A DNA stretch of 64,000 bases from an uncultured Mycoplasmatota bacterium (lineage in GTDB: Bacteria; Bacillota_I; Bacilli_A; RF39; UBA660), in assembly GCA_946497955.1 (NCBI GenBank), contig CAMMMH010000003.1, positions 10,316 through 74,315 on the forward strand, written 5' to 3'. The notes below the pieces were generated by a model. That model saw nothing but the letters and a program-made list of their open reading frames with translations, did not search any database and was not told the origin of the DNA. The position numbers and the translations under genes were made by a program. Below, in pieces: positions 25,024-63,584 of this stretch; within the stretch, counting starts at the first letter, position 1, and the number at the start of each line of letters is the position of its first letter.

Positions 25024-27318
25024 ATGAAGAAAGATAAGGAAATTAAAGAAAAAAAGATAAAAAAAGAAAGAGGTCATATGGCTAAAGAGAAGAAAAGTAT
25101 GTTATTAAAGACAGGATTACTAGTAGTAATCGCTGTCATAGTATGCTTTTTAATAGTACCATTATTTAAGTCATTAAACTTTGGCCTTGATTTACAAGGA
25201 GGCTTTGAAATACTTTATGAAGTTAGTCCTATTGATGGAAGTAAGATGACTAAAGATAAGTTAAATGCAACTTATAAAAGTATGCTTAAACGTATTGATA
25301 CTTTAGGAGTTAGTGAACCGGAAATAACTTTAGAAGGTAATGATAAGATTAGAGTTAAACTTGCTGGTGTTACTAATAAAGATGAAGCGAGAGAGACATT
25401 ATCTACTGTTGCAACTCTAACTTTTAGAGATAGTGAAGATAATTTACTAATGTCTAGTGATGTCTTAGAAGCAGGTGGGGCTAGACTTACTACAGATCAA
25501 AATGGTAGACCTGCTGTTAGTTTAGCAGTTAAAGATAAAGATACTTTCTATAAAGTAACTAATGCTGTTAAAGATTATGAAAATAACGTTATAGTTATTT
25601 GGTTAGATTATAATGAAATGACTGATTCTTATGCTAGTGAAGCTAGTATGTGTGGAACAAGTGAGAGTAATTGTATAAGTGCAGCGACTGTTTCTGAAGG
25701 TTTTGCTAGTGATGTTATTATTCAGGGTAACTTTACAGAAGAAGAAGCTAGTAATTTAGTTGATTTAATTAATTCAGGAAGTCTTCCTGCTAAACTTACA
25801 GAAATATCTAGTAAGACAGTAGGAGCTAGTTTTGGAGATGCAACCCTTACTATGACAATGTATGCTGGTATTGCCGGTGTTCTTGCTATTATTATATTAC
25901 TTATTGGTATTTATAACTTTGCAGGTATTATCTCTGCAGTATCTATACTTTTATATACCTTATTAGTATTTGCAGCCTTCTGGCTAATTGGTGGAGTCTT
26001 AACTCTACCTGGTATTGCCGCTTTAATTCTTGGTATAGGTATGGCAGTTGATGCTAATGTTTTAACATATTCTCGTATTAAAGAAGAACTACTTAAAGGA
26101 AGAAGTTTAGAGACGGCCTTTAAAAACGGTAGTAAAGCAAGCTTTGGAACAATACTTGATGCTAACCTTACAACATTATTAGTTGCCATTATCATGTTCT
26201 ACTTAGGTGAATCTAGTGTTAAAGGATTTGCAACTATGTTAATCATCAATATTATTGTAACAATGGTTACTATGGTCTTTATTACAAGATTCTTAATGAA
26301 GATGTTTGTTAAGACTAAATACTTTGATAATAAATTAAACTTCTTTATTGGTGTACATGAAGAAAATATTAATAAAACTGATAAGAAACCTACTTACAAC
26401 TATCTAGGTCTTAGTAAATTCTTTGCTGCCTTTAGTTTAGTAGTAATACTGGCATCAGTCGTTATGTTTGCTTTTAAAGGAATGAATCTTGGTATTGACT
26501 TCCAAGCTGGTAGTGATATTACTCTTGCAACAACAGAAGTTAGTGAAAAAGACTTAAGAAGTGATTTAAAAGAGTTAAAACTTGATGAAGTAAGTATTGA
26601 TATTACTAGTAGTGAAACTGATATTAGAGTATGTGATGAGTTAAAAGAAGATGAGATTAATAAAGTAGAGAGTTATTTCTTAGATAAATATAATGCTAGT
26701 GTTGATATTGGAGTTGTTTCTAATGCCGTTAAACAAGATTTAATTAAAAATGCCATATTCTCAATAGTTATCTCTTTAATAGGAATAATTCTATATATTA
26801 CCTTTAGATTTAAATTTAGTTATGGTATTTCATCAGTTATCTGTTTAGTACATGATGCCTTAATGATGGTTGCAAGTGTTATCCTTTTAAGAGTAGAAGT
26901 AAATTCAATGTTTATTGCAGCGGTACTTGCCATTATTGGATATTCTATAAATAATACAATAGTTGTCTTTGATAGAGTAAGAGAAAATTTAAGAAAGAAA
27001 GATAAAGAAAACCTTAATAAAGAAGAACTTAAAGATGTAGTTAATATAAGTATTAAAGAAACTATGTCAAGAAGTATTTATACATCATTAACTACCTTAC
27101 TTCCAGTAATTGCTTTACTTGTTATGGGAAGTAGAGAAATATTAACCTTTAATGTAGCGATGATAGTAGGATTAATCGCTGGTACTTATTCATCATTATT
27201 ACTTGCAGGCTGGCTTTATGTGTTCTTTGCAAGTAAGAAGAAAAATAATAATAAAAAGAAAAAAGTAGTTAAAGAAGTGAGTGAGAAGACTATTAAAGGA
27301 GTAAATGATTATGAATAA
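25024..27318 (+). CDS. secDF: Protein translocase subunit SecDF (fused)
   Basis: Two 6-TM SecD/SecF modules with a large periplasmic-type loop. Lys-rich N-terminal extension (the alternative start is ATG 25078). Confidence 0.9.
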   Translation: MKKDKEIKEKKIKKERGHMAKEKKSMLLKTGLLVVIAVIVCFLIVPLFKSLNFGLDLQGGFEILYEVSPIDGSKMTKDKLNATYKSMLKRIDTLGVSEPEITLEGNDKIRVKLAGVTNKDEARETLSTVATLTFRDSEDNLLMSSDVLEAGGARLTTDQNGRPAVSLAVKDKDTFYKVTNAVKDYENNVIVIWLDYNEMTDSYASEASMCGTSESNCISAATVSEGFASDVIIQGNFTEEEASNLVDLINSGSLPAKLTEISSKTVGASFGDATLTMTMYAGIAGVLAIIILLIGIYNFAGIISAVSILLYTLLVFAAFWLIGGVLTLPGIAALILGIGMAVDANVLTYSRIKEELLKGRSLETAFKNGSKASFGTILDANLTTLLVAIIMFYLGESSVKGFATMLIINIIVTMVTMVFITRFLMKMFVKTKYFDNKLNFFIGVHEENINKTDKKPTYNYLGLSKFFAAFSLVVILASVVMFAFKGMNLGIDFQAGSDITLATTEVSEKDLRSDLKELKLDEVSIDITSSETDIRVCDELKEDEINKVESYFLDKYNASVDIGVVSNAVKQDLIKNAIFSIVISLIGIILYITFRFKFSYGISSVICLVHDALMMVASVILLRVEVNSMFIAAVLAIIGYSINNTIVVFDRVRENLRKKDKENLNKEELKDVVNISIKETMSRSIYTSLTTLLPVIALLVMGSREILTFNVAMIVGLIAGTYSSLLLAGWLYVFFASKKKNNNKKKKVVKEVSEKTIKGVNDYE

Positions 27319-32812: not shown

Positions 32813-33535
32813 ATGAAAGTAATTAGAGATGAAGATAAAAATAGTAATAAGTATATAATGAGGTTTGAAGTAGAAAAAGGTACTATTCAAAAAAATACTA
32901 GAAAAAATGCTTCTGCTGTTGAGATTAAAACTGAAGACTATAATAATCTAGTAGTTTATATGGCTAATGGTTCTAAACCTAGGTATACTAATATAGAAGA
33001 GAATAAAGTAAGGTTATTAGAATTAAGACATCAGCAATTTTTAAAGAATAAAGGGAAGTTAAAGAGTTTGAAAGACTATAAAACTATCTTTAATGTTGTC
33101 TCTGGCGGAATTGCAGGTATTATTGTAGGTGTGACTTCTATGGCTACTAGTTCAATTACAATTCTTTTGCAGTGTTCTGCTATTGCTTTTGTTTTAGCAT
33201 ATACTTCTGCTCTTGTAGTTAATAAAGTAATAAATAGTAAAATAAATGATATAAATAAATATGCTTTATTTTTCGAAAATGAAGATATATTTAAAGATGT
33301 AGATTTAGATGATTCTAATATTTTAGAAAGAGTTAAAAGTAAAGATAAAGCAATAATTGCAGAAATAAAACAAGAAAAAGATAAAGAGAATGAAAAAACA
33401 TATTTCGATAATAATAGTATTGATGGCCTATCTTTAGATGCTTTAAGAAAGATAAAAGCTAATATAGAAAGAGAAAACTATTTAGGTTTAGTTAGGACTG
33501 ATGAGAAAACTAAAGGTAAGTCATATGTAAAGTAA
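32813..33535 (+). CDS. Hypothetical membrane protein
   Basis: ATG 32813 follows GAGGAAGAG. Two central TM helices. No family recognised. Confidence 0.5.
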   Translation: MKVIRDEDKNSNKYIMRFEVEKGTIQKNTRKNASAVEIKTEDYNNLVVYMANGSKPRYTNIEENKVRLLELRHQQFLKNKGKLKSLKDYKTIFNVVSGGIAGIIVGVTSMATSSITILLQCSAIAFVLAYTSALVVNKVINSKINDINKYALFFENEDIFKDVDLDDSNILERVKSKDKAIIAEIKQEKDKENEKTYFDNNSIDGLSLDALRKIKANIERENYLGLVRTDEKTKGKSYVK

Positions 33536-33564
33536 AAAAATAAAATTTATATGAATTTTGAAAA

Positions 33565-33592
33565 TTGACTTAAAAAGAGGAGTCAATTTTTT
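33565..33592 (+). terminator. Rho-independent terminator
   Basis: TTGACT / AGTCAA stem followed by a T6 run. Confidence 0.5.
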
Positions 33593-33731
33593 ATTTTCTC
33601 TAGAGGAATTTTCAAAATTAAAGGTAGTAAATACCTCCAATTACTAATTTTCGTAAATTGCAATGTATTTTAACTTATGTTAGAGTGTAGGCATCTGCAG
33701 ATAAATCATTATTGTTGGAGGTAAAAATATT

Positions 33732-34622
33732 ATGAAACAAAAAGAAAATAAAGAAAAGAATGAAAAGAGTGAGAAGAAATTCATTAGTCTTTTATCAGAC
33801 ACTACATTTAAACACTTCTTTAAAATAGAAGACTATAAAGAATTCTTTAATACTATTATAAAACCATATACTAATATGGATATTAGTGAGTTTAGATTAT
33901 ATGATACTGAATTTAATAGTGGTAATGAAAAACGTGATTATCGTTTAGATATATTACTTGAAAGTGATAAATGTGATTTAATTATATTAATAGAGATGAA
34001 TCAGTTTCCTAGTGAAGAGACAAAATATAAAGATAGATTATATGTATACGGCTTACTTGCTAAAAGCCTAAATAGTGGTGAAGATATAAAGAAGAAGAAA
34101 GTCATTCAAATAAACTTTAATAAAGAAAAGCATCCTTATGTAAGTAAAGGTTCATTCTATTTAATGGATAAGGTAACTAATAGAGAAATAAAAGATTTCG
34201 AAATATACGAAGTGTATCTTGAAAATTACAAAGGAATAAGATATAATGGAGACAATAAAGAAGAAGCATATCTATCTTTATTTACTGCTACATCTTATGA
34301 AGAGTTAAGAGAAATAGCAGGAGATGATAAGGAGGCATTAAAGATTGTGGATGAATTAGAAAGACTAGGACTTGATGATAAGTTTGGATTAGCATATGAT
34401 AATGAATTGATGCAGAAAAAAATGATTAATACCGCTCGTAATTGGGGTTATGATGATGGTAAAGAAGCTGGGAAAGCTGAAGGACTAGAAGAAGGTGCTA
34501 AGGCAGAAAAAATATCTATTGCTAAAAAACTTCTTAATATAGGTACACCTAAAGAAGACATAATAAAGGTTACTGGACTAAGTATAGAAGATTTAAATAA
34601 CTTATTAGAAGATAATGATTAG
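33732..34622 (+). CDS. Rpn-family recombination-promoting nuclease / 'putative transposase' (PD-(D/E)XK), locus 1
   Basis: N-terminal FISLLSDTTFKHFFK. Nuclease core RDYRLDILLE...LILIEMNQ (D...ExQ). C-terminal helical tail ...AKAEKISIAKKLLNIGTPKEDIIKVTGLSIEDLNNLL typical of the TIGR01784-like family. Confidence 0.75.
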   Translation: MKQKENKEKNEKSEKKFISLLSDTTFKHFFKIEDYKEFFNTIIKPYTNMDISEFRLYDTEFNSGNEKRDYRLDILLESDKCDLIILIEMNQFPSEETKYKDRLYVYGLLAKSLNSGEDIKKKKVIQINFNKEKHPYVSKGSFYLMDKVTNREIKDFEIYEVYLENYKGIRYNGDNKEEAYLSLFTATSYEELREIAGDDKEALKIVDELERLGLDDKFGLAYDNELMQKKMINTARNWGYDDGKEAGKAEGLEEGAKAEKISIAKKLLNIGTPKEDIIKVTGLSIEDLNNLLEDND

Positions 34623-34654
34623 ACAATTAATAACTGTAAGGAGGCTACAATATT

Positions 34655-34915
34655 ATGAGCAAATCAGAAAATTTATGGCTTGATGATGATTTTGGATTAG
34701 CATATGATAATGAGATGATGCAGAAAAAAATGATTAATACCGCTCGTAATTGGGGTTATGATGATGGTAAGGCAGATGGTGCTAAGGCAGAAAAAATAGA
34801 AATTGCTAAAAATCTTCTTAATATAGGTACACCTAAAGAAGATATAATAAAAGTTACAGGTTTAAGTGAAGATGAGATAAATAATTTACTAGAAGAGTTA
34901 AAGAAAGAAGCTTAA
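34655..34915 (+). CDS. Stand-alone copy of the Rpn C-terminal domain (86 aa)
   Basis: Own RBS TAAGGAGGC 10 nt upstream of the ATG. Re-encodes residues ~206-296 of the upstream gene. A 55-nt run is perfectly identical (34408-34462 = 34716-34770). Lacks the EAGKAEGLEE segment. Confidence 0.7.
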   Translation: MSKSENLWLDDDFGLAYDNEMMQKKMINTARNWGYDDGKADGAKAEKIEIAKNLLNIGTPKEDIIKVTGLSEDEINNLLEELKKEA

Positions 34916-34952
34916 TAACTTCTTTCTTTAATCCTAAAAATGAGGTGCTGAT

Positions 34953-37238
34953 ATGGATTTTAAATTTACTGATAATTCTATTTATATTGTTCCTAATAGT
35001 TTAAAATTAAAACTATTAGATAAGTTGTCAAAAGAAAGAAAAATTTATAATATAACTTTTATAAGTTTAGAAGAATTAGAAAAACATTATTTCTTTGATA
35101 TAAAAGAAGATGCTTTACTATATCTTTTAGATAAGACTAATGAGAATATAGATGTGTTAAGACTTATGTTAGGAAATCTTTATAAAATAGAAATTACTAA
35201 AGAATATAGGGAGTCTAAATTAAATAATCTTAAGAGTTTATATTATGACTTAAAAAATAATAACTATCTAATATTTGATAAAGGTTATATTGATTATTTA
35301 TTAACTAAAAACATCTTTATCTTAGGTTATAGTATGCTAGAGGCATATCAAAGAGATATGTTAGATAGTATTAATACTAACTATTTAGATATTAGTGGCA
35401 ATTTATCTATAGATACTGTATATAAATATCATTCTATGAAAGATGAAGTTATAGGTACGGCTTTAAAGATAAGAGAACTTAATAGTAAAGGTGTTAGTTA
35501 TAATAAAATCTTTCTAGCGGGTGTTGACAATAGTTATAACTATTTACTTAAAACTATTCTTTCTATGTTTGATATACCTTTATACCTTAAATCTACTAGT
35601 AAACTAACTTCTTTAATAAGTGTTAAAGAGTATCTAAAAGATAAAGATATTAATCATATTAAAGATATTAATTTAAAAGCTAAGATTATGAAAATAAATG
35701 ATGATTTAACTTATGCTAAGAATAGTAAATATTATGATATTCTTTTAAAAGATAGACTAGAAAAGGCTTCAATGGACAGTATAGAGTTAGTAGAGTCTGT
35801 TAAAGTCTTAAATGAAGCATTAGATATTCCTTATCTAGTTAGTGATGATGAATACTTGTTTGCCCTAGGTTTTAATCAAAATCATTTACCTAAAATATAT
35901 AAAGACGAAGAGTACTTAAGTGATAATTTAAAGAATAAATGTAATTTAAATACCTCTACTATTAAAAATAAATTGAGTAAAGATAATCTAGTTAAAGTCC
36001 TAGGAACTATTAAAAACCTAACAATATCATATAAACTAACATCATTAACTGGAGAATATGCTAAATCTAGTTTATTAAATGAACTTAATTTAAAAGAAGT
36101 AGATAGTCTTAATTATAATTATAATTATAGTAGAGACTTTAATAATTATAGAGTAAGTAGTGTCTTAGATAATTATTATAAATATCATGAGAAAGATAAA
36201 GATTTTGACTTTCTAACTACTAATGTAGATACAAGTAAATATACTAGCTTTGATCATAAATTTAAAGGTATTAATAGAGAGGTTACTCCTTATAACTTAT
36301 CTTACTCAAGTATAGATGATCTTGCTAAGTGTCCTTTTAAATACTATTTAAAATATATCTTAAAATTAGATAGCTTTGAAGAAAATTTTAGTACAAAAAT
36401 AGGTAATATCTTTCATAGTGTTTTAAAAGACAGTTATAATGATAACTTCTCTTTTGATGTTGCTCTAAATATTGCCTTAAAGGATAATCCTTTAGAAAAA
36501 GATGAGGCTGTTTTATTTAGAAGATTAGAAAGTGAGTTAGAGAAAATAGTTAATTATAATAAAGAGGTAGAAAAAAGAAGTTTTCTTACTGAGTTTTATG
36601 GTGAAAAGAGATTAGAGATACCTCTTGGTAACCATGCAACTTTAAAAGGCTTTATTGATAAGATACTCTTTAAAGAATTTCATGATAAAACTTATTATGC
36701 TGTTTTTGATTATAAGACAGGTAGTGCAACCCTAAACTTAGATTATTTAGATGAGGGACTATATTTACAACTACCATTATATATTTATCTAATTAATAAA
36801 AGTAATTTGTTTTCTAATCCTACCTTTGTTGGTTTCTTTTATCAGTACTTATTACAAAACTATAAAGATAAAGAAGAACAACTTAAGAATTTAAAACTAG
36901 TAGGTTATACTACTGATGATAAAGTAATACTTTCCTATTTAGATGAAGACTATGAGACTAATTCTTTTGTTAAAGGGTTAAGTGTAAAAAAAGATGGAGA
37001 GTTATCTAGTAGAAGTAAAGTATTAAGTGATAGTGAAGTAGAAGATATAATGAACTCTATTAATAAAGCTTTAGATAAATCTCTTAACATAATAGATAAT
37101 AATCTCTTTGATATCGCTCCTAAAGTAATTAATAATAAAAATATTTCTTGCGAGTTTTGTCCCTTTAAAGAAGTATGTTTTGTAAGTCCTAGTGACTATG
37201 TTTATCTTGATAAGAAAGAAGGTGAAGAGAATGCCTAA
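34953..37238 (+). CDS. addB: Helicase-nuclease complex subunit AddB/RexB (no N-terminal Walker A)
   Basis: C-terminal RecB-type nuclease (GFIDKILF...FDYKTG) bracketed by Cys residues (CPFKYY; CEFCPFKEVC = Fe-S staple). Directly upstream of and overlapping addA. Confidence 0.85.
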   Translation: MDFKFTDNSIYIVPNSLKLKLLDKLSKERKIYNITFISLEELEKHYFFDIKEDALLYLLDKTNENIDVLRLMLGNLYKIEITKEYRESKLNNLKSLYYDLKNNNYLIFDKGYIDYLLTKNIFILGYSMLEAYQRDMLDSINTNYLDISGNLSIDTVYKYHSMKDEVIGTALKIRELNSKGVSYNKIFLAGVDNSYNYLLKTILSMFDIPLYLKSTSKLTSLISVKEYLKDKDINHIKDINLKAKIMKINDDLTYAKNSKYYDILLKDRLEKASMDSIELVESVKVLNEALDIPYLVSDDEYLFALGFNQNHLPKIYKDEEYLSDNLKNKCNLNTSTIKNKLSKDNLVKVLGTIKNLTISYKLTSLTGEYAKSSLLNELNLKEVDSLNYNYNYSRDFNNYRVSSVLDNYYKYHEKDKDFDFLTTNVDTSKYTSFDHKFKGINREVTPYNLSYSSIDDLAKCPFKYYLKYILKLDSFEENFSTKIGNIFHSVLKDSYNDNFSFDVALNIALKDNPLEKDEAVLFRRLESELEKIVNYNKEVEKRSFLTEFYGEKRLEIPLGNHATLKGFIDKILFKEFHDKTYYAVFDYKTGSATLNLDYLDEGLYLQLPLYIYLINKSNLFSNPTFVGFFYQYLLQNYKDKEEQLKNLKLVGYTTDDKVILSYLDEDYETNSFVKGLSVKKDGELSSRSKVLSDSEVEDIMNSINKALDKSLNIIDNNLFDIAPKVINNKNISCEFCPFKEVCFVSPSDYVYLDKKEGEENA

Positions 37239-40200
37239 ATTTACTGAAGCTCAACAAAAAGCGATAGATTTAGAAGGTTCTAACATTTTAGTTAGTGCAG
37301 GAGCAGGGAGTGGTAAGACTGCTGTTTTAACAGAAAGAGTCTTAAGGAAAATAAAAGAAGGGACACATATTAACGAACTTTTAATCTTAACATTCACTAA
37401 TAAAGCTGCCCTTGAAATGAAAGAGCGGGTTAGAAAAAAACTTAAAGAAAATGAAATCTTAGATGAATTAGATTTACTTGATAGTAGTTATATCACTACC
37501 TTTGATGCTTATTCCCTTGCTTTAGTTAAAAAATATGCTGATACTATTCACTTATCAAGTAATATAACAATTGCCGAATCTAGTGTCTTAGAACTTGCTA
37601 AAAAAGAGATATTAGATGAGATATTTTTAGATTATTATGATAGATGTCCTAATGACTTTCTTAATTTAATTACTAAATTTTGTCTTAAAGATGATAAAAC
37701 TCTTAAGAAAAGGATATTAGAACTTGATAGTAGTCTAGATTTAAAACTAGATAAAGATGAATTTATTAATACTTATATCTCTAAATATTATAGCGATGAA
37801 GTAATAGATAAATATATAAATGAATATTTAGAACTTCTTAAGAATAAAAAGGAAGAGATTATAAATTTATATGAAGAAGTTAGAGCTTTAACATCTAGTA
37901 AATATTTAGAACAGTTAGAAGAGGCATTTTTACCTTTTATAAATGCCAGTACTTATGAAGAGTTAAGAAGAACTATTTTTACATCTTTGCCTAGAGCAAG
38001 AACAGGTGTAGATAGTGATTCTAAAGAGACTAGAGATAATTTAACAGCATTACTAAAAGAGTTTAAAGACTTAGTTATATATGAAAGTGCCAACGATATT
38101 AAAGCTAGTATTATTAAGACTAAAGAATATATCTCTTGTATTTTAGAACTAGTTAAAGAATTAGATAAGAGATTTACTCTATATAAGGAAGAAAATAACT
38201 ACTATACTTTTATGGATATAGAGAAGCTTGCTATTAGTCTTGTCCGTGATAATTTAGAGATTAGAGAAGAAGTTAAGAATGGTTTTAAAGAAATATTAAT
38301 AGATGAATATCAAGATACTAATGATATCCAAGAGACTTTTATTAGTTATATTAGTAAAGATAATGTCTATATGGTAGGAGATATTAAACAATCTATTTAT
38401 CGTTTCCGTAATGCTAATCCTTCTATTTTTAAAGATAAGTATGATAACTATAAGAAAGGTATTGGGGGTAGAGTAATAGATCTTGCTAAGAACTTTAGAA
38501 GTAGAAGAGAAGTCTTAGATGATATTAATCTATTCTTTTCTCATATTATGGATGATTATTTAGGAGAAGCAGATTATAATAATGGGCATGCGATGGTCTT
38601 TGGTAATATGACTTATGAGGCAAGTGCCAAAACTACTAATAATAATTACTTGGAGATATATACTTATGATGCTAAAGATAAGGAGTTTAGTAAACTAGAA
38701 AAAGAAGCCTTTATTATTGCATATGATATTAAAGAAAAAGTTAATAGTAAGTACTTAGTCTATGATAAAGATGAAGATACTTTAAGAGAAATAGAGTATC
38801 GGGACTTTGTAATTCTTTTAGATAGAGCGACTGATTTTACTACTTATAAACAAGTCTTTGAATATTTAGGACTACCTATTACTTTGTATGAAGATGAAAA
38901 GACTAGTGGTAGTACAGATTTATATTTATTAAAAAACTTCTTTATTATAGCAAAATCTATTATTACTAACACTTATGATACTAAGTTTCGTCTTGCTTTC
39001 ACTTCCATCGCTCGTAGTTTTCTTTTCTCTTATACAGATGATGAAATCTATCAGTGTTTAGTTAATAATACTTATAAAGAGACAACTGTCTTTAAACTAT
39101 TTAAGGAAATATTAGAAAATATTGATTTGTTAACACCAGTTACTTACTTAGAAAATGTTTTAGATAAACTAAATTATATAGATAAACTTACTTTGATAGG
39201 TAATGTCGAGATTAACTCTAGTAGAATGGAATATTTCTATAACTTAATAACAAATCTTGAAAATAGTAATTTTACTATCCTTGATGTATGTGATTACTTA
39301 GAAAAAATTAATAATCTTAAGTTAGAGATAAAACTTGCTATTAGTAAAGAAGATAGTAATAGTGTTAAGATTATGACTATTCATAAATCTAAAGGACTAG
39401 AATATCCTATCTGTTACTTTGCAGGATTTTATAAAGACTTTAATAAAGATGAATATAAGAGTAATGTTTTATTTGATGAAGATTATGGCATCATTATAGA
39501 TGAAGTAGATACTAATAATAAATTAATTACTAAGACTCTTTCCTTAGAGAAGTTAAAACAAAAAGATATTAGTGAAAAGATTAGACTTTTATATGTCGCT
39601 TTAACTCGGGCAAGAGAGAAAATGATTATAGTTATGCCTAATATCGAAAATGATAAAGAAATAGGAGATATTGTTAGTACTTATGATAGGCTTAATTATA
39701 CTAACTTTGCTAAGATGGTTATTAGTGTAGCATCTCTATTTAAAGATAAAACTAAAGAAATAACTGATATTAAAGATATATCTAAAGCTTACTTAGAAGT
39801 TAAGAAGGTAGATTCTAAAATAAATAATAATATTAAAGAGTTAGAGATTATTCCTTCTATTTATGATAATAGTGTTTTAGAAAAAGAAACATATCATAAA
39901 GAAAGTGATGATGCTAAAACTAAGAACGAGTTAAAACTTCTAGAAGTAGGAAGAGTTGTTCATACTTTATTTGAAAGAATAGACTTTACTAATAACAAGT
40001 TACCTTATATAGAAGATAACTATTATAAAGATAAACTTACTAAGTTTCTTAATAGTAGTTTTATGAGACAATATAAAGATTATAAAAAATATCAAGAATA
40101 TGAATTTATTTATGAAAATAGTAATATAACTTATCATGGTAAAATAGACTTATTATTGGTTAGTGATAAGGAATCTATTATTATAGACTACAAACTTAAA

Positions 40201-40326
40201 AATACTAAAGATAAAGCTTATATAGACCAACTTAATGGCTACAGAGAAGTAATTAGTAATAAGTTAAATCTACCAACTAGTTGCTATTTATATTCGATAA
40301 TAGATGAAGTTTTCGAGAAAATTTGA
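37231..40326 (+). CDS. addA: ATP-dependent helicase/nuclease subunit AddA
   Basis: MPKFTEAQQKAI...GAGSGKT Walker A, DEYQDT, UvrD-like motifs, C-terminal nuclease (GKIDLLLV...IIDYK). The ATG at 37231 overlaps the addB stop by 8 nt. The track start at 37192 is an artefactual extension. Confidence 0.9.
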   Translation: MPKFTEAQQKAIDLEGSNILVSAGAGSGKTAVLTERVLRKIKEGTHINELLILTFTNKAALEMKERVRKKLKENEILDELDLLDSSYITTFDAYSLALVKKYADTIHLSSNITIAESSVLELAKKEILDEIFLDYYDRCPNDFLNLITKFCLKDDKTLKKRILELDSSLDLKLDKDEFINTYISKYYSDEVIDKYINEYLELLKNKKEEIINLYEEVRALTSSKYLEQLEEAFLPFINASTYEELRRTIFTSLPRARTGVDSDSKETRDNLTALLKEFKDLVIYESANDIKASIIKTKEYISCILELVKELDKRFTLYKEENNYYTFMDIEKLAISLVRDNLEIREEVKNGFKEILIDEYQDTNDIQETFISYISKDNVYMVGDIKQSIYRFRNANPSIFKDKYDNYKKGIGGRVIDLAKNFRSRREVLDDINLFFSHIMDDYLGEADYNNGHAMVFGNMTYEASAKTTNNNYLEIYTYDAKDKEFSKLEKEAFIIAYDIKEKVNSKYLVYDKDEDTLREIEYRDFVILLDRATDFTTYKQVFEYLGLPITLYEDEKTSGSTDLYLLKNFFIIAKSIITNTYDTKFRLAFTSIARSFLFSYTDDEIYQCLVNNTYKETTVFKLFKEILENIDLLTPVTYLENVLDKLNYIDKLTLIGNVEINSSRMEYFYNLITNLENSNFTILDVCDYLEKINNLKLEIKLAISKEDSNSVKIMTIHKSKGLEYPICYFAGFYKDFNKDEYKSNVLFDEDYGIIIDEVDTNNKLITKTLSLEKLKQKDISEKIRLLYVALTRAREKMIIVMPNIENDKEIGDIVSTYDRLNYTNFAKMVISVASLFKDKTKEITDIKDISKAYLEVKKVDSKINNNIKELEIIPSIYDNSVLEKETYHKESDDAKTKNELKLLEVGRVVHTLFERIDFTNNKLPYIEDNYYKDKLTKFLNSSFMRQYKDYKKYQEYEFIYENSNITYHGKIDLLLVSDKESIIIDYKLKNTKDKAYIDQLNGYREVISNKLNLPTSCYLYSIIDEVFEKI

Positions 40327-62143: not shown

Positions 62144-62546
62144 TATAGTTTAGACTATGCTTTTTCTTTTGGTAAAATTTGTGTTTTTTTGTTCTTATGT
62201 TTCTTTATTCTTTTTCTTAATATTATACTTGATTATTAGAGAAGATATTAATATTATTATTTGGGATATTGTCTATTTTTTACCTATTTTTCTATTGACA
62301 CAATTTATCTATTATGATACTTTATAGACAGAAGAGGCGACACATAAAAGATGGAGAAAGGAGGAAATTTAAAATTTTTGAAAAAAGTATGAATTTTGTA
62401 ATTTTAAGAAGTTTTTGATATAAATATTTAAAATTCGTCTAGAGAAAATAGTAAATTGAAGCCATATTTTTCTTGAATTTTGAAAATTGCCTTTTTGCAA
62501 TGATTTATAGACTATGATATATCTAATTGCAGAGAGGAGGAACTTT

Positions 62547-63353
62547 ATGAATAAAGTACCTAGATTTATATCATTAATGTCAGATACAACTGCAAAAGCT
62601 TTACTTAAAGATAAACGCTATAGTTGGTTCTATGAAGATATTATTAAATTTAAAACTAGTATTGATTTAACGAAATATAAGTTAGTTGATGCTGAGATGA
62701 ATACTGGTAATAAAGCTAAAGATTATAGAGCAGATTTAATTTATGAGAAAGGAAAACACCTTATTAATCTAGAATTAAATCAGTTTATCCACGAATACAC
62801 TTTAACAAAGAATCTATATTATGCTTTAAGATTAGCCGGTTATGGTTACTTATCAGGAGAAAATTATGATGAAAGATATGTAACTCAAATAAATTTAAAT
62901 AATAAAGTAGGAAATGATGGTAATAAAGATAATAGTTTAATAGATTATAAGTTACAAGATCCTAAATATGCTAAGATATTAAAAAATATAAATATTGTAG
63001 ATATATATCTTTTAAATTACAAAGGAATAAGATATAATGGAACTAACAAATATGAAACTTACTTATCTATGTTAACAGCAAACTCTTATGAAGAGATGGA
63101 AGAAATAGTAGGAGATTTAGAAGAAGGGAGAATAATTATGGAAAAGTTAAAAGAATTAGGATTAGATGATAAATTTGGCATGTACTATGATGCTGAGATA
63201 GTGCATAAGAAAGAAGTAAATTCTGCTAGAAAAGAAGGTGCTAATAATGAGAGAAAATCTATTGCTAAAGCGATGTTAAAAGCAGGAGAAAGTGTTAGTA
63301 AAGTAATGAACTATACTGGCTTAAATAAAAAAGAAATTAAAATGTTAATGTGA
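62547..63353 (+). CDS. Rpn-family recombination-promoting nuclease / 'putative transposase' (PD-(D/E)XK), locus 2
   Basis: FISLMSDTTAKALLK, KDYRADLIYE...INLELNQ, C-terminal ...KSIAKAMLKAGESVSKVMNYTGLNKKEIKMLM. ATG 62547 follows GGAGGA. Paralog of 33732-34622. Confidence 0.75.
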   Translation: MNKVPRFISLMSDTTAKALLKDKRYSWFYEDIIKFKTSIDLTKYKLVDAEMNTGNKAKDYRADLIYEKGKHLINLELNQFIHEYTLTKNLYYALRLAGYGYLSGENYDERYVTQINLNNKVGNDGNKDNSLIDYKLQDPKYAKILKNINIVDIYLLNYKGIRYNGTNKYETYLSMLTANSYEEMEEIVGDLEEGRIIMEKLKELGLDDKFGMYYDAEIVHKKEVNSARKEGANNERKSIAKAMLKAGESVSKVMNYTGLNKKEIKMLM

Positions 63354-63369
63354 AGAAAGAATAATAATT

Positions 63370-63584
63370 ATGAAAAAACTAAAAGAATTAGGTTTAGATG
63401 ATAAATTTGGAATGCTTTATGATGTAGAGATAGTACAAAAGAAATAATTAAATTCTGCTAGAAAAGAAGGTGCTAAAGAAAGAGAAAAATCTATTGCAAA
63501 GAATCTTCTTAAAATGAACTATCTGTTAAAGGTGTAATGAAAGCAACTGGACTATCTAAAAAACAAATAACTACCTTGATGTAG
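63370..63584 (+). pseudogene. Decayed stand-alone copy of the Rpn C-terminal domain (locus 2)
   Basis: MKKLKELGLDDKFGMLYDVEIVQKK*, with the TAA at 63445-63447. It then reads LNSARKEGAKEREKSIAKNLLK..., has a frameshift near 63520, and continues LSVKGVMKATGLSKKQITTLM*. Collinear with residues ~198-268 of the upstream gene. Confidence 0.65.

Follow-up and report, generated by a model that had tools for sequence, protein, structure and literature searches.

The 64,000-nt window analyzed here (contig CAMMMH010000003.1 of an uncultured Mycoplasmatota bacterium; G+C content 26.5%), to which all coordinates refer, contains a divergent member of the Rpn family of recombination-promoting nucleases, and within the coding sequence of this long gene a complete Shine-Dalgarno sequence (SD) precedes an in-frame GTG codon. 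The subject of the following analysis is whether the C-terminal tail of the encoded protein is also synthesized on its own from this internal site, so that the locus would be a gene within a gene. A small stand-alone gene that resembles the tail follows directly downstream. The locus (locus 1) comprises these features:

33732..34622, + strand: rpnL-like long gene of 296 aa (open reading frame (ORF) call; match to the TIGR01784 profile), encoding a divergent Rpn-family PD-(D/E)XK nuclease with a C-terminal tail
34219..34247, + strand: candidate internal promoter (TTGAAA, 17 nt, TATAAT) with 11/12 consensus positions, about 80 nt upstream of the internal SD
34328..34336, + strand: internal SD TAAGGAGGC in codons D199-K200-E201-A202, with its AAGGAGG core at 34329-34335
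34347..34349, + strand: in-frame GTG (codon 206) at which the short protein is proposed to start, GTG in 22/22 close homologs
34347..34622, + strand: rpnS-like internal ORF of 91 aa (about 10 kDa) that has its frame and stop codon in common with the long gene; residues 48-83 match PDB 7TH0
34458..34493, + strand: tract of four-residue repeats (GKEA GKAE GLEE) in the long first helix of the tail
34637..34645, + strand: SD TAAGGAGGC of the stand-alone short gene, 10 nt before its ATG
34655..34915, + strand: rpnSs-like stand-alone short gene of 86 aa, MSKSENLW type (ORF call; match to the C-terminus of TIGR01784, E 9.3e-8)

A sequence-only reading of this DNA had described an AAGGAGG followed 11 nt later by an in-frame GTG, and this was reproduced exactly: direct reading places a spacer of 11 nt (34336-34346) between the core at 34329-34335 and GTG 34347, and (34347-33732)/3 = 205 makes this triplet codon 206 of the 296-aa ORF. 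The size of about 10 kDa proposed for the short product likewise agrees with the 91 aa calculated for the internal ORF. The stand-alone ORF begins 32 nt past the stop codon of the long gene. In a pairwise DNA alignment of the internal and the stand-alone copy, the SD 9-mer is identical at 9/9 positions, the spacer at 6/10 with a length difference of 1 nt, codons 1-8 at 13/24 nt without any indel, and codons 9-38 at 86/90 nt; a gap of 24 nt then follows, which equals eight codons or two four-residue repeats, and the next stretch is 87% identical. Since codons 1-8 contain no indel, VDELERLGLDDKF and MSKSENLWLDDDF stand in exact register. The earlier claim that the internal N-terminus and the stand-alone ORF align residue for residue was thereby recovered, together with the identical 9-mer TAAGGAGGC and the 10-nt spacing to the ATG in the stand-alone copy.

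Residues 23-290 of the long protein align with positions 3-272 of the 273-position NCBIfam profile TIGR01784 (Rpn family recombination-promoting nuclease/putative transposase; E 3.7e-11), with a score of 43.4 bits that lies below the curated cut-off of 52.1. The same profile was matched by 55/55 aligned family members (best E 2.8e-15), and PF12784 by 2/55. A Pfam search with the long and short proteins retrieved no match to PF04754, PF12784 or PF14261, only sub-threshold noise (Yae1_N, DUF7216), and neither the 86-aa nor the 91-aa protein matched PF14261 (DUF4351) at E ≤ 1. Judged by its profile alignment, the long protein is clearly homologous to the Rpn/YhgA-like/TIGR01784 PD-(D/E)XK family, and automatic annotation would not name it Rpn. 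Its relatives derive from metagenome-assembled genomes (MAGs) of uncultured Bacilli or 'Tenericutes' and from Candidatus Onthousia of the chicken gut, and the family is multi-copy, with at least four copies in the closed 1.5-Mb MAG OZ006970.1. Most relatives (proteins P0001-P0240) carry the precomputed Pfam label PF27070.1; a newer Pfam release may already define the subfamily under this label.

In the AlphaFold (AF2) model of the long protein (pLDDT 74.7, pTM 0.68) the N-terminal part forms a beta-sheet core. With the full model as Foldseek query, the best matches of this domain were the PD-(D/E)XK nucleases EcoO109I, McrC, Bax1, and XisH, all at non-significant E-values (0.03-1), so that the fold assignment of the N-terminal domain rests on sequence. 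Alignment of the family profile with E. coli RpnA by hhalign covered the tail and left the N-terminal parts unaligned. The catalytic residues of RpnA are D11, D63, and E82-x-Q84 (PMC5350276), to which D23, D73, and E88 of the long protein could be matched by motif order alone. In the family alignment D23 and E88 are invariant, D73 is nearly so, and N90 is invariant; the third catalytic position reads E88-M-N90-Q91, with N90 (or Q91) in place of the glutamine of the RpnA ExQ motif. The tail could be placed more closely. Residues 48-83 of the 91-aa ORF match PDB 7TH0, the crystal structure of E. coli RpnA-S, with a phmmer E-value of 0.0025, hhalign gave a probability of 93.7% (E 1.8e-7) for the tail, and Foldseek superimposed the tail of the AlphaFold model on 7TH0 with a probability of 1.00, a TM-score of 0.79, and an rmsd of 1.5 Å over 41 columns. 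These comparisons identify the C-terminal domain as a homolog of the RpnS three-helix bundle.

The rpn genes of E. coli and C. difficile make RpnS from an internal start site, and rpnSs copies lie downstream of them (Zhong et al., 2023, PNAS; PMC10400941). When RpnS binds to RpnL, it blocks both the nuclease activity and the toxicity of the long protein. The first RpnS helix carries four-residue repeats that begin 8-20 residues after the start; their number differs between strains, neutralization requires that the numbers match, and in E. coli RpnC a mismatch abolishes it (PMC10400941). Additional copies of the short gene, for example ypaA, have originated behind long genes on independent occasions and may be lost or undergo fusion, and the E. 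coli genes also have an internal promoter (PMC10400941).

For a comparative analysis of the internal site, the equivalent DNA was taken from 49 genomic loci (designated by L numbers) plus further contigs, and counts of close homologs refer to 22 full-length long genes of the locus-1 family. K200 is encoded by AAG, E201 by GAG, and V206 by GTG in 22/22 of these genes, codons that account for 20% of Lys, 22% of Glu, and 3.8% of Val codons in the window. In the same 22 genes the third positions between SD and GTG vary (A202 GCA/GCG/GCT, L203 TTA/TTG, K204 AAG/AAA, I205 ATT/ATC/ATA). A more distant subfamily with 47-51% identity (L033, L038, L040, L041) has AAT-AAG-GAG-GCT...GTA-GTG in the equivalent column and thus keeps (A/G)AGGAGGCT, the 11-nt spacing, and GTG; where L033 swaps Lys for Glu under the SD (GAG-GAG-GCT), the GGAGG core is retained. 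The third subfamily is that of a second Rpn locus in the window (locus 2):

62547..63353, + strand: second rpnL-like gene, 268 aa, 40% identical to the first long protein
63124..63140, + strand: internal SD-like AAGGGAG (63124-63130), 7 nt, and in-frame ATG 63138, in the same alignment column as GTG 34347; relatives have AAGGAGGG + 11 nt + ATG or GTG
63371..63584, + strand: decayed stand-alone short copy (pseudogene); its SD is weak, and TAA at 63446 ends the reading frame prematurely, after 25 codons

The in-frame ATG 63138, to which the sequence-only reading had pointed as the equivalent codon of the paralog, does occupy that column, with AAGGGAG and 7 nt upstream. The locus-2 family, 40% identical to locus 1 at the protein level, carries the SD AAGGAGGG at 11-nt spacing from a start in the equivalent column. 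The motif was locatable in 116/120 members, nearly all of which have Met in the start column; the three exceptions are all Val and all encoded by GTG. In one member (L060), in which EEGR is changed to EGGK, the DNA still reads AAGGAGGA and retains the GGAGG core.

The putative SD and start codon are thus kept in three subfamilies down to 40% protein identity, and the pattern of allowed and barred changes is that expected of a ribosome-binding site plus start codon. Conservation of the SD-like sequence in orthologs was one point on which the earlier reading could have failed, and AAG-GAG-G and GTG in all close homologs, with their counterparts in two further subfamilies, indicate on comparative grounds that the C-terminal domain would, as proposed there, also be translated from within the long gene. 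Alternative starts were considered and rejected: M227 and M231 lie nearer to the repeats but lack an upstream SD, and M231 is in addition not kept in the locus-2 family; a TTG three codons before the GTG, the choice of the ORF caller in stand-alone copies, is separated from the SD by 2 nt and is replaced by TTA in half of the homologs. RNA folding around the internal SD is unremarkable (z = -1.1).

Stand-alone genes in other genomes make use of the same site. Those of the VDELERLG type begin at AGGAGGC...GTG-GAT-GAA (L002:3436, L033:3386, L038:1450, L041:3393, L042:451) and have stop codons 11-17 codons upstream; the GTG would be their only plausible start. In L042 the spacer between SD and GTG measures 12 nt instead of 11, not a multiple-of-three change but one of the kind expected in a non-coding leader, and SD and GTG are retained; a decayed copy in L001 has a 9-nt spacer. 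The divergent 47-51% subfamily possesses stand-alone copies of its own type (L038:1137, L040:3381), and in both L038 and L040 the duplicated stretch starts about 12 nt 5' of the SD. The MSKSENLW type, with an ATG start behind TAAGGAGGC + 10 nt, follows long genes in the window and in L002, L004, L015, L020, L032, and L039. In L002 and L038 the long gene is followed by two short genes. A stand-alone partner is missing from about 25 of about 35 long genes, which nevertheless retain the internal site. An intact 79-aa counterpart of the decayed copy at 63371-63584 is present in L050-L053. The proposal that the duplicated unit was an SD plus short ORF therefore stands in part: stand-alone genes elsewhere begin at the same SD and GTG, and the duplicates in L038 and L040 start just before the SD, but the local copy is only weakly homologous from the spacer through codon 8 and is not a fresh duplicate. 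Because of this weak homology to the internal region, we regard it as a member of an older stand-alone lineage, the MSKSENLW type.

The tails themselves are variable in a regular way. Among homologs at 81-100% identity the tail length differs by whole four-residue units (GKEA/GKAE/GLEE...), the locus-2 family has lengths of 268/272/276/280/284 aa, in steps of four residues, and the last two tail helices are mosaic, with helix 2-3 cassettes shared and swapped among homologs. Between a stand-alone copy and the long tail next to it, repeat number and helix 2-3 sequence never both agree; mismatching copies were seen in the window (34458-34493 vs. 34768-34780) and in L002, L015, L033, L038-L042, and L050. 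By the repeat-matching rule of E. coli, the stand-alone genes would not encode cognate antitoxins for their neighbors; they may serve other paralogs or act as a recombination reservoir.

Several observations weigh against internal initiation or against the function that it would imply. From the window alone, the internal SD with its in-frame start is within chance. AAGGAGG occurs five times, vs. 5.0 expected from dinucleotide shuffles, another intragenic copy lies at 25196, and of about 16 intragenic GGAGG sites approximately one would, by our estimate, have an in-frame start at suitable spacing by chance, and one was seen. The earlier argument that a full SD inside a gene is conspicuous in such an AT-rich genome does not hold up against this count. 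The 9-mer TAAGGAGGC is rarer, with only two occurrences in the window vs. 0.21 expected, a number reached in 0/100 shuffles. The signal rests on register and conservation, not on motif rarity. All five AAGGAGG sites (5/5) are on the + strand, and long ORFs also lie mostly on this strand (stop-to-stop ORFs of at least 70 aa total about 57.8 kb on + and 14.3 kb on -).

Further points on the same side concern conservation, structure, and context. Invariant nucleotides also occur elsewhere in the gene: in the 22-gene set 38% of degenerate conserved codons show no variation, V161 (34212-34214) is likewise an invariant GTG (22/22), other troughs of synonymous diversity exist, and the homologs are related and exchange sequence; V161 in particular cautions against taking invariance alone as function. 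GTG 206 sits within a confidently modeled helix (residues 200-213; pLDDT about 96 for blocks 161-210 and 90 for 211-220 in the AF2 model), the start lies about 37 residues before the repeats vs. 8-20 in described RpnS, and a spacing of 11 nt is at the long end for a Gram-positive ribosome-binding site. Given N90/Q91 at the third catalytic position, nuclease activity and toxicity of the long protein are not assured. PADLOC gave no match, and the two genes downstream are the DNA repair genes addB/addA instead of defense genes. Finally, both internal translation and the 5' end of the transcript are deduced from the sequence of an uncultured organism.

The strongest competing explanation, which we nevertheless consider unlikely, is that codons 160-240 serve as a homology anchor for recombination among paralogs and stand-alone copies, with gene conversion keeping the block uniform, SD and GTG being carried along, and stand-alone copies beginning at recombination breaks. 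The multi-copy nature of the family, with the copies in MAG OZ006970.1, the mosaic tails with their swapped helix 2-3 cassettes, and what we read as a GCTAA microhomology at the junction of the L038/L040 duplicates are all in keeping with it, as are the low synonymous diversity, which extends over the broad block of codons 159-199 and is not confined to the SD, and the invariance of the unrelated GTG at V161. Against it, the synonymous sites of A202, L203, K204, and I205 vary freely where SD and GTG do not. The feature is moreover still present in proteins of 40% identity, for which gene conversion involving locus 1 is implausible, in a column that toggles between ATG and GTG only; residue changes under the SD preserve GGAGG; and the L042 stand-alone spacer is altered in length and sequence and SD and GTG stay. 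Recombination and initiation are in any case not mutually exclusive.

It appears very unlikely that the site reflects coincidence or an amino-acid constraint, in which case the protein would need D-K-E-A...V, the SD would be a by-product, and the short protein would come from 34655-34915 alone. The shuffle expectation for AAGGAGG in the window and the single GGAGG with in-frame start expected by chance fit such an origin, and DKEALKIVDELERLG is nearly invariant as protein in a confidently folded helix. Protein constraint, though, leaves unexplained why the rare synonymous codons AAG, GAG, and GTG are fixed in 22/22 genes, why the paralogous family varies only between Met and Val (GTG), and why GGAGG is retained when residues change. 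A short protein from the stand-alone gene alone is also difficult to reconcile with the long genes, the majority, that have no such copy, and with a local copy that is two repeats off, a kind of mismatch that abolishes neutralization in E. coli RpnC. An action of the internal SD on elongating ribosomes, by a pause for folding of the nuclease domain before the tail emerges or by coupling to the downstream gene, is extremely improbable: SD-like pausing has been proposed in the literature and is disputed, and the site does lie near the boundary of the conserved N-terminal part and the variable tail, but it is inside a helix in the model and not at a linker, a pause needs no start codon at fixed spacing, yet GTG/ATG is conserved, and the only plausible start of stand-alone genes is at this very SD and GTG.

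In its overall architecture the locus resembles E. coli RpnA-E and the plasmid-encoded RpnP2, which likewise combine a long PD-(D/E)XK Rpn protein with an in-frame internal SD and start before the C-terminal helical domain. In E. coli rpnA the SD AAGGAG lies in the K240-E241 codons and is followed after 6 nt by ATG M244; the SD is thus built from a Lys-Glu codon pair, as at locus 1. Shared with E. coli Rpn are also the tail homologous to RpnA-S, the variable four-residue repeats in the first tail helix, an internal promoter, here a candidate, and the multi-copy, patchy distribution of the family. The window differs in having GTG instead of ATG as start, an 11-nt instead of a 6-nt spacer, and a short product of 91 aa vs. 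49 aa that begins two helices before the three-helix bundle, with repeats about 37 residues after the start where the described cases have 8-20. Its N-domain misses PF04754 and PF12784, falls below the TIGR01784 cut-off, and reads E-M-N-Q for ExQ, and the host belongs to an uncultured 26% G+C gut Bacilli lineage (Candidatus Onthousia and relatives) known here from sequence. The rpn of C. difficile, likened here by description and expressed in E. coli by Zhong et al., is a Gram-positive (Bacillota) gene that needs an internal ribosome-binding site and start codon to make its short product, but this start is reported 8-20 residues before the repeats.

The stand-alone gene has its parallel in the rpnSs genes (ypaA/rpnESs after rpnE and rpnCSs after rpnC; DUF4351/PF14261), small genes directly downstream that copy the tail. 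In both cases the copies arose independently in subfamilies and can decay or fuse, the window having one intact and one decayed copy. In contrast to the known rpnSs, the short protein of the window has no PF14261 match, two flavors exist (MSKSENLW/ATG and VDELERLG/GTG), up to two stand-alone copies accompany a long gene (L002, L038), and the adjacent copy always departs from the tail in repeat number, in helix 2-3, or in both.

At the level of sequence, the locus agrees with an RpnL/RpnS system in its family profile match, RpnS-like tail, conserved internal SD and start, and variable repeats. We consider it probable that locus 1 is a gene within a gene of the RpnL/RpnS type, encoding a nuclease toxin and a nested antitoxin that would start at GTG 34347; the internal SD and GTG very probably give rise to a separate 91-residue tail protein. 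Anatomy, homology, conservation of SD and start, and repeat variation were seen directly; internal initiation, promoter use, binding, toxicity, and neutralization are what we infer from them. Ribosomes starting at ATG 33732 would make the 296-aa protein, a PD-(D/E)XK nuclease domain with a helical tail and the presumed toxin. Ribosomes recruited by the SD at 34328-34336 would start at GTG 34347, and their 91-aa product would have the sequence of the tail; most of it probably comes from a shorter mRNA that the candidate promoter at 34219-34247 would drive. If the precedent of E. coli RpnA, B, C, and P2 applies, this product would pair with the identical tail of the long protein via the repeat-bearing helix and hold the nuclease inactive. 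The internal product always matches the long protein in repeat number, because both share the same codons. The gene at 34655-34915 would be an rpnSs-type stand-alone descendant of such an internal unit; with two of the repeats missing, its product is unlikely to be the cognate partner.

The candidate internal promoter is itself conserved. Members of the locus-1 family retain TTGAAA or TTGATA, the 17-nt spacer, and TATAAT, and in L038, L040, and L041 of the 47-51% subfamily hexamers and spacing persist despite different residues, with a weaker TTGCAA in L033. It lies in the deepest broad trough of synonymous diversity (codons 159-183, mean 0.02-0.08 vs. a gene mean of 0.18). The candidate would parallel the internal promoter of the E. 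coli rpn genes. The GTG of V161 adjoins the candidate -35 hexamer on its upstream side; it has no SD and is not start-like, and it may belong to a conserved promoter block. Chicken-gut metatranscriptome contigs (X20-22, X27) are deeper over the 3' part from about 34193, and two contigs begin at 34242; this depth was rejected as evidence of a short transcript, the contigs being unstranded, broken at paralog branch points, and pooled from a multi-copy family. From the long gene through the short gene to addB, no terminator was predicted.

In four loci from three MAGs (L027:2990-3010, L028, L034, L046) a recurrent +1 frameshift changes TAC-AAAGGA to TACGGGAGGA (window about 34229-34235). It falls in the spacer of the candidate internal promoter, which it lengthens from 17 to 18 nt, and splits the long gene into a 171-aa nuclease ORF and a C-terminal ORF that retains the internal SD and GTG. 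This allele may represent either a toxin in decay whose antitoxin is kept or a genuine split form.

Both long genes are preceded by copies of a palindrome:

33554..33566 and 33607..33619, no strand assigned: palindrome AATTTTSAAAATT, two exact copies upstream of the first long gene; a third copy at 62476-62488 lies upstream of the second long gene

These three exact copies are the only ones in the window, all upstream of the two rpn long genes. Among L001-L061, exact or near copies occur 70-185 nt upstream of rpn starts in all three subfamilies. Their offsets are fixed, at about -178/-144/-125/-93 for genes of the locus-1 family and about -156/-124/-102/-70 for those of the locus-2 family, so that neighboring copies are about 32, 22, and 32 nt apart. 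A structured RNA leader in the conserved 180-nt upstream region was considered and rejected: RNAalifold gave -3.4 kcal/mol with a positive covariation term, and its pairs arise only from palindromes matching each other. Rfam returned nothing at E ≤ 1 over 33450-34950. The arrangement looks like a DNA operator array, and a conserved TTGCA(A/T), 17 nt, TGnTA.A.. downstream of the palindromes may be the main promoter. Such an array, next to a small helical, HTH-like protein proposed to neutralize a nuclease, is reminiscent of type II toxin-antitoxin operons with an HTH autorepressor antitoxin, from which the window differs in that its antitoxin is nested in frame inside the toxin gene. RpnS is not known to bind DNA, and the tail is an unlikely binder of the palindrome, because its would-be DNA-reading helices are hypervariable while the palindrome is conserved.

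The rpn pair of locus 1 is flanked upstream by rpmF and a membrane protein, as read from their ORFs, and downstream by addB/addA (window 34953-40326); PADLOC gave no matches and no defense-island context was seen, which is not a strict requirement of the Rpn family. At L041:3663-5957 the corresponding place before addB is occupied by another rpn allele (47% identity) accompanied by a stand-alone S gene of its own, which makes this site a recurrent home for rpn modules.

A wider interpretation, which we regard as rather doubtful, is that the Rpn module of this lineage is more than a nested pair, in that the S protein is extended to 91 aa, the stand-alone S genes act as a reservoir of cassettes whose recombination into the long gene re-sets toxin-antitoxin specificity, and the AATTTTSAAAATT array serves as operator for transcriptional control of the module. 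The extended S protein does carry the most conserved segment of the family, LGLDDKFG..YD.E....IN.AR. To our knowledge, neither programmed tail switching nor operator control has been established for Rpn systems.

The arrangement itself is already published, and the known picture of Rpn systems is unchanged by the present analysis. What the reading of locus 1 as an RpnL/RpnS-type gene pair would add is its extension to a very divergent, Pfam-invisible Rpn subfamily that is multi-copy in the approximately 1.5-Mb, AT-rich genomes of uncultured gut Bacilli. It also suggests that an internal start can be recovered from comparative sequence alone, by the fixation of rare codons, an alignment column restricted to ATG and GTG, and the reuse of SD and start in stand-alone genes. 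For annotation, such genes should carry a second, nested coding sequence, which automated pipelines will miss. The subfamily moreover offers a set of natural variants, among them a longer S protein, non-matching stand-alone S arrays, a split allele created by frameshift, and operator-like palindromes, which could help to explain how toxin specificity and release are set.

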